A stretch of 64,000 nucleotides of DNA from an uncultured Acidobacteriota bacterium (GTDB taxonomy: Bacteria; Acidobacteriota; Vicinamibacteria; Vicinamibacterales; UBA2999), in the NCBI GenBank assembly GCA_963814395.1, contig CAWFCS010000013.1, positions 860,799-924,798 on the forward strand, read 5' to 3'. Within the stretch, counting starts at the first letter, position 1. Every line of letters starts with the position of its first letter. Below, piece after piece: positions 877-5,142 of the stretch. The notes below the pieces were generated by a model, which was given only the letters and a program-made list of their open reading frames with translations, was not told where the DNA came from and ran no database searches. The position numbers were made by a program, and so were the translations under genes.

Positions 877-2170
877 TCACGCGCCCGGCGCCTGCACCTC
901 GATCACCGGGTCGATCTGGAAGCGCAGGCGCGCGTGGGCCTCGCGCAAGGCGTTGTGCACCGCGCGGTCGTCGGGCCCTTCGGCAAAGACGAAGCCCAGG
1001 TAGCTCGCCCCTTCCGGCAGGGCCACCAGTCGCTGATCGACCTTGGCCGTGACGACCACGCCGGTCACGAGCGGCACGGCGCGCGCGTCGTCCTCCCCCG
1101 CCACGGCGCGCAGCACGCCTGAGCGCGGGAATCGGCACCATCATCACGCCCACAGCCGCGCCGGCAGGACGCCAGTGCGGCGCCGCCAGGCCGGCCGCCT
1201 GCGCCAGCAAGCACCTCTTCCAGCGGCACGCCGTGGCCGTCGGGGCCATCGAACGCCAGCGCCCGGGCGCACAAGCCCGCCGATCGGCCGCGCCGCCACT
1301 TCGAGCACCACGACCTCGCCCGAGCCGGCACGCGGCACTCCGCATGCACCGGGCCATGCCAGAGCCCGGCGGCGTGCGCGGCTCGCGTCACGGCCGGGAT
1401 GATCGCCAGTGCGTGGGCGCGCGTGCGGGCCGTGGGCGTGAGATAGACCGTCTCTTCGAAGTAGGGGCCAGTGAGCGGTTCCGGCTTGTCGAAGATGGCG
1501 AGCACATGCAGGCGGCCGTGGTCCATCACCCCTTCGAGGGCGAACTCGTCGCCGTCGACGTAGCCCTCGATCTGGATGCGCCTCGGCGGCCTCGTCGCGC
1601 AGCTCGCGCACGTCGGGCGCCGCCAGCAGCGCGCTCACGCGCGCCAGCGCCGCCCGCAGTTCGGCGGCATCGTTGGCGCGCATCACGCCGCGGCTGCCCG
1701 AGAGCACGAGCGGCTTGACCACGCACGGATACGACACGCCGTCGGGCGGCGTCGACCTGTCCGGCGGGCACCGTGAGCGCCCACGGCGCGGGCAGGCCAT
1801 GCGCGCGCTGACAGGCGCGGAAGCGCCGCTTGTCTCGGCTCGCGCGCGCGCCGGCCACCGAGTGCCAGGGCAGGCGCCGCGCCTCGGCCACGAGCGCCGC
1901 CAGTACCACCGGCCGGTCGCCCACCGCCAGCACCCCGTCGAGACGCTGGCCCGCCAGCGCCTGCAGCACCGCGTGCAACGACGCGGCCTCGTCGTGGAAG
2001 CGCACGGCCACGGCGCGGTCGCGCCACGGGTCGTCGAGCCGGTCGCAGCGATCGGTCGCCAGCACGAGCTCCACGCCGAGCCGCGTCGCCGCCTCGTCGA
2101 ACATCCGCGTCTGATAGCCCGTGGTCGTCGCGCACAACAACACGCGCGGCCGCAGCGTGACATCGGTCAT
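877..2170 (-). CDS. ATP-grasp domain protein (L-amino-acid ligase-like), frameshifted
   Basis: Joined fragments: RDKRRFR, YPCVVKPLVLSGSRGVMRAND, IFDKPEPLTGPYFEETVY, GPVHAE, LEVAARPIGG, LPEGASYLGFVFA. Confidence 0.85.
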
Positions 2171-2221
2171 CGTGTGTCCGGGCGCGTGGACTGGGCGCCA
2201 GCCTCCGTGCTCCATCGCCCG

Positions 2222-2254
2222 CCCCTAGTCCCTAGTCCCTAGTCCCTAGTCCCT
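2222..2254. repeat. Heptamer tandem repeat (CCCTAGT)x4
   Basis: cccctagtccctagtccctagtccctagtccctg between the radical SAM and ATP-grasp genes. Confidence 0.9.
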
Positions 2255-2257
2255 GCA

Positions 2258-3635
2258 CTAAAGGAGAGCCACCTGCTCTCCCGTCGGCTCCGCTCAACAG
2301 TACCAGGGCTCGGTGAGGTACGGAATCGACGCGCGCGATGGCAGCACCGGCCGCGGCCCTGGCGCGCCGGCCACATCGGCCGCGGCGCGCGCGCGAATGG
2401 CCTCGAACGTGGCGCGGCGCGGGCCGGCCCTGCGCCACGCCGGCCATCTGCATCACGTCGCGCTGCAGGGCATCGACGCGGGCGTCGGCATGGACCCACG
2501 GGATGGGTCAAGCGTGGCGGGATTGTAGGGGCCGGCCACGGCGCGGATCTCGTCGAGCGCGAGCAGGCCCGAGTCCTGCGTGACGAGCAGGCGCAGCGTC
2601 CACTGCACCGGCGGCCACGTGATCCACGAGCCCCAGTCCGTCGATGTCGTCGAGGAACGCGAGATAGCCGGTCGCCGTCGTCCACGGCGTGAAGGCCACG
2701 AACGTGGGTGAGAGGGCCAGCCCCAGCTCGTGGCAGCGGGCGGCCACGGCTTCGACATCGGCGCGCGTGTGGCCTTTGTCGAGCGCCACCAGCACGTGGT
2801 CGTCGAGCGATTCGACGGCCGAGGTGACAAAGGCGCAGCCGGTGTCGCGCAGCGCGCGGCAGCAGCGCGTCGTGCCGGCGCAGATGCTCCACCTTGATGG
2901 TCACGTCGTAGGTCAGCGCCGGCCACTCGCGGTGCAGCGCCTCGACGAGACGCACGGCATGCGTGGGCCCGTTGAAGAAATCGGGATCGGCAAAGGTGAT
3001 GTGCGTGGCGCCGAGCGCCACCTGCGCGCGCACGTCGGCCAGCACGACCTCCACCGGCACGGCGTGGAAGCGGCCCTGGTAGATGGGCACCACCGGACAA
3101 TGCCGGCACACGTGCTTGCAGCCGCGGGTGGCCTCGACCGCACCCACGACGCTGGCATGGCCGTCGGGCCAGACCAACTGCGCATAGCGGTCGAGCGCCG
3201 GCAGGCCGGCGCGGTCGGGCACCAGCGGCCGACGCCGCGCGGCCGCGGCACCGTCGGCGGCGCGGCGCGAGGCCGTGCACGCGCACAGGCCAGCGCCACG
3301 AGCTCCTGCTCGCACTCGGGCCCGAACACCGCGGTGGCGCCGGCCTCGCGCAGGCGCGCGTCGTTGAGCGGTCCGTAGAGCCCGTAGGCGCAGATCGGCA
3401 CGTCGGGCAGGCGGCGCCGCAACTCGGCGATCACCGGCAGCGCCAGACGCGTGGCGGTGTGCATCGGCAGCGACACGGCCACGAGCGTGACGCCCTGCAG
3501 CGCGTCAGCCGGCAGCCGCTCGACCGCGAGGTCGTGCACGCGCACGTCGAGCCCGGCGCGGCGCAGCCACGCCGCCGGCAACGCCAGCCCGACCGGCTGG
3601 CGGCCGAGGTCGTAGACCGAGAGCAGGAGGACCAG
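2258..3635 (-). CDS. CUAEP-tail radical SAM selenoprotein with N-terminal B12-binding-like domain, frameshifted
   Basis: N-term [30 protein letters not shown]; CxxxCxx[36 protein letters not shown]; tail [13 protein letters not shown](2296-2294)[14 protein letters not shown](2260-2258). Confidence 0.88.
2263..2281 (-). promoter_or_regulatory. Bacterial SECIS hairpin
   Basis: 12 nt after the in-frame UGA: GGAGAGC-AGGUG-GCUCUCC, perfect 7-bp stem with G-containing apical loop. Confidence 0.8.
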
Positions 3636-5142
3636 CTACGACCTCTCCGCCGCCGGCTCGGCTTCGAGCATGCGGCGCATCGGGCCCACGAACACCAGCA
3701 GGATCACCGCCGCCACGATGGCAAAGCCGCCGACCGTGCCGAAGAGCGTCGGCAAGCGCCATCGATTCGTAGAAGCCCGACACGCGGCCGCCGATGAAGT
3801 TGCCGACGGACGTGGCCAGGAACCACACGCCCATCACCAGTCCGGCAATCCGCGCCGGCGCCAGCCGCGTCATCGCGCTCAGGCCCACCGGGACTCAGCG
3901 ACAACTCGCCGATGGTGTGCAGCAGATAGGTCAGCACCAGCCACAGCGGGCTCACCTTGTCGCCGCCCGCCGAGGCGCTCGCCGGCCCCATGAGGATCAG
4001 GAACCCGAGGCCGACGCACACCAGGCCGAAGACGAACTTGCCGGGACTCGACGGCTCCTGCCCGCGCGCAGCGAGCTTGACCCACAGCCAGGCGAAGACC
4101 GGCGCCAGCGTGAAGATGAAGAACGAGTTCACGCTCTGGAACCAGCTGCTCGGAAAGGACAGGCCGAGGAGCTCGGTGCGCGTGGCCCGGTCGGCAAACA
4201 GGTTCAGCGTCGACCCGGCCTGCTCGAACACCGACCAGAAGAGCGCCGCCGCCAGGAACAGCACGGCGATGACGACGAGGCGCTTGCGCTCGGCCGGCGT
4301 CCACTCGCTGCTCGTGAGCAGCCACGCAAAGAAGATCACGGTCGACAGCAACAGCCCGACGCCAGCCGCATCGGCCACGCCCACGGCGGTGATCGGCAGC
4401 GCGCCGGTGTAGCCGCCGATGCCAATCACGGCCAGCACCGCCACGAACAGACCGCCCCACAGCGCCGCCTTCGACCGCAGCGCCGCCTCGGCCTGCGGCG
4501 ACGCCGCCGGCACCGGATGCAGGCCCTTGTCGCCCAGATGACGGCCGCCGAGCACGTACTGCACGACGCCGATGGCCATGCCGAAGCCGGCCGCGGCGAA
4601 GCCCGCGTGCCAGCTGACGCGCTGGCCCGAGGTAGCCGCAGACGAGCGGCGCGAGGAACGCGCCCAGGTTGATGCCCATGTAGAAGATCGAGAAGCCGGC
4701 GTCGCGCCGGTGATCCTCGGCGCGTGTAGAGCTGCCCGACGATCACGCTCACGTTGCCCTTGAGCAGCCCGGTGCCGATCACGATCAGCACGAGCCCGAG
4801 ATAGAACGTGACCAGCGACGGCACGGCCATCGCGAAGTGGCCACTCGAGATGATGATGCCGCCGTAGAGCACGGCGCGGCGTTGCCCGATGAGCCGATCG
4901 GCGATCCACCCGCCGGGCAGCGCCGCCATGTAGGCCATCGAGGTGTAGAGCCCGTAGATCGCGCCGCCCTGCGCGGCATCGAAGCCGAGGCCGCCGGCCG
5001 CGAGCGGCGCCGTCATGTAGAGCAGCAGCAGCGCGCGCATGCCGTAGTAGCTGAAGCGCTCCCACATCTCGGTGAAGAAGAGCGTCGAGAGCCCGCGGGG
5101 GTGGCCGAAGAACGCCGTGTCGGTCGGAGCCGGGTTGGCCAT
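3636..5142 (-). CDS. POT/PTR family proton-dependent di/tripeptide transporter, frameshifted
   Basis: [27 protein letters not shown] (ExxERFxYY), [41 protein letters not shown]. Confidence 0.93.

Follow-up and report, generated by a model that had tools for sequence, protein, structure and literature searches.

A radical SAM selenoenzyme and an ATP-grasp ligase conserved with the iron-sulfur helpers YggX and NfuA: a candidate system for modifying the helpers' tail lysine

The window analyzed here, a stretch of 64,000 nucleotides from an uncultured Acidobacteriota bacterium of the UBA2999 lineage (GenBank assembly GCA_963814395.1, contig CAWFCS010000013.1, positions 860,799 to 924,798), carries three minus-strand genes separated by gaps of 0 and 87 nt (Table 1). 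They encode a proton-dependent oligopeptide transporter (POT), a radical S-adenosylmethionine (SAM) enzyme that is very likely a selenoprotein, and an ATP-grasp ligase. A convergent gene encodes YggX, of the family assigned to iron (Fe) trafficking and iron-sulfur (Fe-S) protection. A preliminary description had read the first three genes as an operon for a peptide natural product. Their common orientation and close spacing hold, as does the pairing of enzyme and ligase; the transporter drops out, and the Fe-S helper with its lysine (Lys) tail, which lies just outside the proposed operon, had been missed. The unit conserved across genomes consists of the enzyme, the ligase and an Fe-S helper (YggX here, NfuA elsewhere), without the POT.

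Table 1. Features of the enzyme-ligase-helper locus, in window positions. Cys, cysteine; Sec, selenocysteine; SECIS, selenocysteine insertion sequence.
Feature	Position	Strand	Remarks
POT/PTR2 oligopeptide:H+ symporter gene	3636..5142	minus	ATG 5142, TAG 3638-3636; PTR2 and TIGR00924 matches; 4 frameshifts
CUAEP-tail radical SAM gene, very likely a selenoprotein	2258..3635	minus	CTG start 3635; NF040546; frameshifted here, intact in relatives
CxxxCxxC cluster-binding motif of the radical SAM enzyme (CKHVCRHC)	3097..3120	minus	sequence motif
Predicted Cys-Sec pair (TGT TGA) in the radical SAM C-terminal tail	2294..2299	minus	TGA 2296-2294; stop 2260-2258
SECIS-like hairpin	2262..2282	minus	8-bp stem, loop AGGTG
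L-amino-acid-ligase-type ATP-grasp gene	877..2170	minus	ATG 2170, TGA 879-877; ATPgrasp_N, ATP-grasp_4 and LAL_C2
Family-specific invariant Cys of the ligase, RPIGGLC	codon 1271-1269	minus	just past a frameshift in the window
YggX gene (Fe-trafficking/Fe-S protection family)	525..857	plus	convergent to the ligase gene, stops 19 nt apart
YggX tail YVPPRSK, terminal Lys	834..854	plus	candidate modification or docking site

All three minus-strand genes are frameshifted in the window, a point absent from the preliminary description. Compared with the close relatives L024 and L022, whose enzyme and ligase genes are unbroken and whose POT frame stays open to the locus edge, they carry approximately 17 frameshifts, mostly single-base insertions. 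The extra bases at 2612, 3893, 4626 and 4722 are absent from public contigs of related DNA. Splits also affect unrelated genes (ligD at 5509 and bshC, which is in four pieces). Errors in assembly or sequencing are therefore the likely source of the frameshifts; true gene decay in the window strain is possible. Intact relatives stood in for the frameshifted genes in our analyses. A scan of the locus for promoters and terminators gave a signal at chance level.

The radical SAM enzyme is a member of family NF040546 (CUAEP). The protein from the intact congener L024 scores 547.6 bits (cut-off, 500), and the frameshifts break the window protein into pieces that score 130, 219 and 97 bits. Both family hallmarks, the CxxxCxxC motif and the C-U/C-AEP tail, are present in the window enzyme. 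The available part of 10.1101/2022.07.06.499078 calls the family uncharacterised, and we found it only named, with no partners described. This is a large and widespread family, yet one without a known reaction: 7,997 of 7,997 scored candidates matched at E<=1e-30 (ArsL-type relatives may be among them), and the enzyme is present in approximately one sixth of the sampled Acidobacteriota and one quarter of the sampled Chloroflexota. A survey of 151 Streptosporangiales genomes yielded nothing beyond the seed genome and a single ArsL-type gene. The gene has no ATG and begins with a CTG at the base next to the POT stop; congeners also have a CTG that abuts or overlaps that stop, and other genera use ATG or GTG. 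The structural model (predicted local distance difference test, 87.9) has a disordered tail and is nearest in fold to AprD4 (6fd2; template modeling score (TM), 0.72). The match to the B12-binding domain PF02310 (26.7 bits) falls below the cut-off of 32.1.

The in-frame UGA in the tail very likely encodes Sec, as the preliminary description had proposed, because selA, selB and tRNA-Sec are present in the source genome (all above cut-off), relatives have an aligned Cys and a hairpin lies downstream. Among 168 distinct tails, 110 have TGA at this position and 58 have Cys. A G-loop hairpin follows 109 of the 110 TGA tails versus 29 of the 58 Cys tails (kin are not independent), with mean energies of -11.3 and -6.2 kcal/mol, respectively. 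A search for selD in the source genome, a 76% complete assembly, did not find it, and the best match reads as ThiL.

Sequence comparison places NF040546 as the sister family of ArsL, which bears out the relationship suggested earlier. ArsL, according to the available parts of 10.1101/2024.02.01.577332 and 10.64898/2026.04.29.721666, converts SAM to methylthioadenosine and transfers the aminocarboxypropyl group onto arsenic held by tail cysteines. Aligned with three ArsL proteins, the enzyme is collinear over approximately 390 residues (30-33% identity) and shares the motifs CxHxCxxC, DxDFxN and FxPW as well as a vicinal Cys pair, the C-U/C of NF040546 aligning with the CC of CCLKC in ArsL. Thus, the window enzyme would be expected to cleave SAM in the manner of ArsL. 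However, it has no third tail Cys, its second is often Sec, and it has PMHTA where ArsL has PLFD. The intact L024 protein scores 258.8 bits against the ArsL family cut-off of 450 (NF040542), and the RCCLKC three-Cys tail is lacking. In a quick tree of 29 rows, for which a careful search is unfinished, the two families form separate clades with a support of 100. The partners of the enzyme also differ, being Fe-S helpers with no ars genes nearby.

The ligase has the domains and fold of L-amino-acid ligases, the closest structure being that of BL00235 (3VOT; TM, 0.80; 27% identity). It shares the three-domain architecture of BL00235, BacD and RizA, yet it differs from them in an invariant Cys at RPIGGLC, in its ties to Fe-S helpers and in the protein amine proposed below as its acceptor. 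The Cys follows the R-P-I-G-G loop in 99% of 177 ligases and in 80 of 80 from a metagenome set. By analogy with BacD, this loop probably lines the acyl-donor pocket. Acidic residues in DKPD and FEET are also invariant. We found no indication of Sec in the ligase: the 177 sequences contain no internal TGA, and in a further 80 the codon of the conserved Cys is never TGA, although unsampled lineages may differ. Matches in the ESM Atlas gave generic ligase names only. The available part of PMC6920838 includes Met-Gly and Met-Met among the products of BL00235.

Enzyme and ligase are co-inherited across several bacterial phyla, even when the genes are far apart in the genome. In 250 Acidobacteriota genomes, both genes were present in 40, the enzyme alone in 1, the ligase alone in 6 and neither in 203, using a ligase threshold of E<1e-100 that scored three weaker matches (G119, G087 and G204) as absent; one of the ligase-only genomes (G062) is unpublished. 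The corresponding numbers for 201 Chloroflexota genomes were 48, 2, 12 and 139 (E<1e-90, four weaker matches scored as absent). Hence the ligase accompanies the enzyme in 40 of 41 enzyme-bearing genomes of Acidobacteriota and in 48 of 50 of Chloroflexota, and the co-conservation for which the preliminary description had asked for a neighborhood analysis is borne out. A repeat search for the enzyme in ligase-only genomes (5 of the 6 Acidobacteriota and 5 of the 12 Chloroflexota) found none. The ligase lies inside the locus in 55 of the best 80 GTDB loci, and 7 of the remainder have less than 600 nt of downstream sequence. Furthermore, 18 of 26 additional enzyme genomes, picked mostly for having no adjacent ligase, have a ligase orthologue.

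Some enzyme loci from genomes without the ligase have neighbors of their own. SaoD/DsrE family genes (NF040913) are near the enzyme in two such genomes (L108:6052-6447 and L133:7159-7596). A Nonomuraea operon (L095:7815-14567) encodes a CCAEP enzyme, a methyltransferase, an aminotransferase, MerB, DUF169 and a further MerB, and the genome has no ligase orthologue.

The third member of the unit is the Fe-S helper. The window YggX, with a single conserved Cys, exceeds the cut-offs of PF04362 and PRK05408. A yggX gene is present in 48 of the best 80 GTDB loci, 25 of 30 Chloroflexota enzyme loci (where it commonly lies just ahead of the enzyme gene and overlaps its start) and 70 of 80 metagenome ligase loci. 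The enzyme is present in 34 of the 35 Chloroflexota genomes with the close YggX clade; YggX is broader in Acidobacteriota (96 of 251 genomes). In genomes without the close clade, NfuA takes this position, adjoining the enzyme or the ligase in 17 of 20 hand-picked loci. NfuA also adjoins the ligase in 17 of 18 loci (17 genomes) that have no enzyme, in divergent (10), convergent (5) or co-oriented (2) arrangement; a 19th enzyme-less locus, with a decayed ligase, keeps YggX. The persistence of NfuA beside the ligase even without the enzyme suggests that the helper is the ligase's steadiest partner and the enzyme an addition. YggX and NfuA are mutually exclusive as neighbors, and the sole locus with both has an IscA-type gene. 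The module NfuA carries the NfuA CxxC domain; the available part of PMC8593673 describes NfuA as a cluster carrier under oxidative stress. Individual loci or small sets of loci have other sulfur-relay or Fe-S genes near the module (DsrE/SaoD, FdhD, ThiS, SelD-like, Cys/Met pyridoxal phosphate enzymes, LipA and superoxide dismutase).

The window YggX has a His-rich N-terminal extension (MSGDHSDHPHHHHD, 525-590) that possibly binds metal. In one Chloroflexota group (L310-L314 and L317), the module (NfuA, ligase, enzyme and often DUF169) adjoins lipA, a lipB-like gene and a pyruvate dehydrogenase E1-like gene. At L323:2400-9988, NfuA, enzyme and ligase are beside a SelD-like gene, a flavin disulfide reductase gene and an EgtB/SenA-like gene. 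A formyltransferase-like gene is divergent from yggX in several Chloroflexota loci (L220-L229); its counts looked unreliable and were not used.

The POT, which the preliminary description had made the carrier of the product, is a genuine family member (154.9 and 183.2 bits on TIGR00924; cut-off, 130.2). It is co-oriented with and abuts the enzyme in 13 of 13 loci from the window genus, where the two genes may be co-transcribed. In 17 loci from other genera of the order, it is co-oriented in 1 and divergent in 4, and a sodium:solute symporter takes its place in 5. Of the best 80 GTDB loci, 9 of which have less than 1.5 kb of upstream sequence, 4 have the POT next to the enzyme in the same orientation and 1 has it in that orientation at a distance of 3 kb; in 14 it is divergent, and in 61 it was not seen. 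A sodium:solute symporter occupies its position in 7. It was found in 0 of 30 Chloroflexota loci with 1.5-kb flanks and 0 of 20 wider loci, and in 13 of 80 metagenome ligase loci, on the opposite strand in 10 of these. We thus rejected the POT as a core member, given that it is fixed only in the genus of the window and is divergent, replaced or absent elsewhere.

The helpers share a Lys near the end of their tails. Of 75 distinct YggX tails from ligase-bearing genomes outside Chloroflexota, 74 (73 by script plus L121 by eye) carry a Lys six residues past the tail aromatic. The same Lys is present in 5 of 24 ligase-lacking genomes (4 of 23 distinct tails by script plus G143 by eye). These counts leave out 20 distant YggX proteins, G119, G288, G417 and E. 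coli. The Lys is also present in 67 of 69 proteins from a separate metagenome set that was held out, is biased toward Acidobacteriota and contains positives only. It has been lost in separate lineages (G215, G028, G107, G119, G495 and most of family f45). For example, G119 has a decayed ligase and has lost the Lys, and its congener G177 keeps both. In family f45, the Lys is kept in the 3 ligase-bearing genomes and is not at this position in 14 of the 16 others. Of 40 module NfuA tails, 38 end in P-[YF]-[YF]-x-x-small-K and the remaining 2 have variants; tandem repeats are present in 5. E. coli NfuA ends four residues before this Lys, so that the module protein has a four-residue Lys extension past the E. 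coli end. The motif is present in 0 of 110 enterobacterial NfuA proteins (10 of an original 120 were dropped, as their end motif was not located).

The frequent loss of the YggX tail Lys when the ligase is missing suggests that the ligase modifies the helper. We tentatively propose that the ligase attaches an amino acid to the tail Lys and that the enzyme makes or extends the attached unit, an explanation that is quite possible although it falls short of being probable. The ligase would form an acyl phosphate on an amino acid, which the side-chain amine of the tail Lys would attack to yield a swinging arm like that of lipoyl proteins. The attached residue would bear a soft atom, for which sulfur or selenium, as in a homocysteine- or cysteine-like unit, is the likeliest choice; we favor these atoms because of the invariant Cys in the ligase substrate loop and because the closest solved relative makes Met-X dipeptides. 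The enzyme may hold sulfur or selenium on its Cys-Sec pair and join to it the aminocarboxypropyl group of SAM, or it may add that group to the tethered residue. It would act as an add-on, as ligase and NfuA persist without it. With the arm, the helper could gain one more metal ligand with which to handle iron or clusters. The complete scheme, a widespread and undescribed posttranslational modification system for Fe-S helpers in which the ligase loads a sulfur or selenium amino acid on the tail Lys, convergent in YggX and NfuA, and an ArsL-like selenoenzyme builds the unit from SAM, is doubtful when all of its parts are required to hold.

Several observations weigh against tail acylation. Five ligase-lacking genomes keep the YggX tail Lys, E. 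coli YggX ends in YTPEDKK, and G417, in which the ligase was not found, retains a Lys-rich YggX tail. The ligase-lacking YggX counts also overstate independence, since many come from one family. In Chloroflexota the YggX tails are longer, with the fixed Lys spacing in 2 of 32 and a small residue followed by Lys in 28 of 32. Five ligase-lacking genomes provided no two-domain NfuA and, hence, no control from the same phylum. In addition, 8 of the 26 additional enzyme genomes have no ligase orthologue, and the loci of 6 of these 8 hold DUF169, MerB, DsrE/SaoD or methyltransferase genes, neighbors that hint at metal or metalloid chemistry. The characterized L-amino-acid ligases in the available part of PMC6920838 act on free amino acids. 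As ligase and yggX are tail-to-tail in the window, they are not co-transcribed. We infer every chemical step of the acylation, propose the contact between ligase and helper from genomic patterns, and offer the identity of the soft atom as a guess.

The architecture and fold of the ligase, which are those of an enzyme acting on free amino acids, are in line with a free intracellular dipeptide. In that case, the selenoenzyme would make a sulfur or selenium amino acid and the ligase would join it to a second free one to yield a product that acts as a small thiol or binds iron, and the role of YggX or NfuA would be limited to maintaining the enzyme's cluster or using the product. Such a ligase in two of the three ArsL loci viewed and the role of NfuA in carrying clusters under oxidative stress (PMC8593673, available part) also favor this explanation. 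We consider it unlikely, albeit a serious contender, for it leaves unexplained both the NfuA genes beside enzyme-less ligases and the tracking of Lys with ligase. The source genome also has bshC and thus no lack of a small thiol, which weakens the idea of a product replacing a missing one (bshC, in 0 of 201 Chloroflexota genomes, is uninformative there). A search for gshB did not find it. The Lys-ligase co-variation would arise as well if the tail served for non-covalent docking of YggX or NfuA to the ligase or the enzyme, for the delivery of iron, clusters or sulfur with nothing attached. The invariant acidic residues of the ligase and its Cys, which could bind metal, suit such an interaction. 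However, a single Lys at a fixed spacing, convergent in two unrelated folds and in tandem in five NfuA tails, looks more like a reaction site; we consider docking improbable.

Full-length homology to ArsL and the common core motifs also raise the possibility of an organometalloid pathway close to what the preliminary description had envisaged. The Cys-Sec pair would bind methylarsenite (or mercury, antimony or tellurium), the enzyme would make an arsinothricin-like amino acid and the ligase would produce a dipeptide that serves in detoxification or acts as a Trojan horse. In the window genus, where 13 of 13 congeners have the POT gene directly against the CTG start, the POT would be the carrier. 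A two-ligand tail could suit methylarsenite. Consistent with this, the available part of PMC13598754 describes the ArsL tail mutant MCCA, whose third-Cys absence is read from its name, as the best catalyst with methylarsenic. The Nonomuraea operon, furthermore, with its methyltransferase, aminotransferase, DUF169 and two MerB genes, speaks for such a pathway. Yet queries for ArsB, ArsR, ArsQ, ArsM, aquaporin and ArsN1 matched in 0 of 80 loci with flanks of up to 8 kb, as opposed to ars genes in 3 of 3 ArsL loci viewed. One weak ArsM-like match was found in 20 wider loci, and the source genome has arsR and arsM approximately 90 kb from the locus. ArsM is not enriched with the enzyme in Chloroflexota (21 of 50 enzyme-bearing versus 94 of 151 other genomes), MerB is in only 2 of 80 loci, and no exporter or resistance gene is conserved. 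The sparse pairing with a co-oriented POT and the lack of ArsN1 or ArsQ matches also speak against an exported peptide natural product. Arsenic or Trojan-horse logic is thus weakly supported at best and, like docking, improbable. We consider it very unlikely indeed that the genes share no function and reflect only inherited gene order, possibly among decaying genes in the window strain. Such an explanation could invoke the frameshifts in all three window genes, the order-wide gene order kept also for unrelated genes such as ligD, and a mirror-tree correlation (r = 0.78 over 120 adjacent pairs) that is expected from shared descent and was not counted as evidence. But the co-occurrence holds for unlinked genes, in two phyla and in 18 of the 26 additional genomes, and the linkage outlasts several rearrangements.

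The ligases of ArsL loci are a precedent for the logic of an amino acid joined into a dipeptide but are a different subfamily. We rejected their orthology with the module ligase, to which they are 20% and 27% identical, with Asp rather than Leu-Cys past the Gly-Gly loop. Both are in Bacillales, in loci that pair an amino-acid-ligase ATP-grasp gene with a carboxymuconolactone-decarboxylase-family gene (L330:324-1852 and L332:112-2937), one of which adds a major facilitator superfamily transporter. These loci are candidate arsinothricin dipeptide clusters. We found none in print and no relevant paper on arsinothricin with an ATP-grasp enzyme.

Tail acylation would have parallels among lysine-tethered arms and protein-directed ligases (lipoylation by LipB/LipA, lysylation of elongation factor P, RimK and LysX) and, for the transfer of aminocarboxypropyl to a protein, in diphthamide. 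The likeness is in logic only, with a ligase charging a lysine on a carrier and a radical SAM enzyme supplying or editing the unit; the proposed system has different enzymes, an unstructured YggX or NfuA tail and a hypothetical acyl unit. Our search found no paper describing an enzyme-ligase-helper system, including YggX or NfuA with an ATP-grasp enzyme, in a literature whose subscription journals were mostly uncovered and whose bioRxiv supplements could mention the family. How YggX protects Fe-S enzymes is a long-standing question. If real, the modification would add a carrier-protein arm of a new kind to Fe-S biology; YggX would gain a missing cofactor arm, and ArsL chemistry would extend from arsenic to chalcogens. 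If it is not, the enzyme-ligase pair would still define a new ArsL-type reaction.

The surroundings of the module in the window include other features. Four copies of the 7-nt repeat GGGACTA (minus strand) occupy 2224-2255, between the enzyme and ligase genes, and match many unrelated contigs. A gene for a stand-alone LigD phosphoesterase domain (5180-5873, with a frameshift at approximately 5509) is divergent from the POT and syntenic across the order. Divergent from yggX is a small Cys-rich open reading frame (255-475, minus strand; approximately 70 amino acids, C..C..CxxC) with no Pfam or NCBIfam match, which is kept in 31 fetched loci with approximately 60-80% identity among the best matches.

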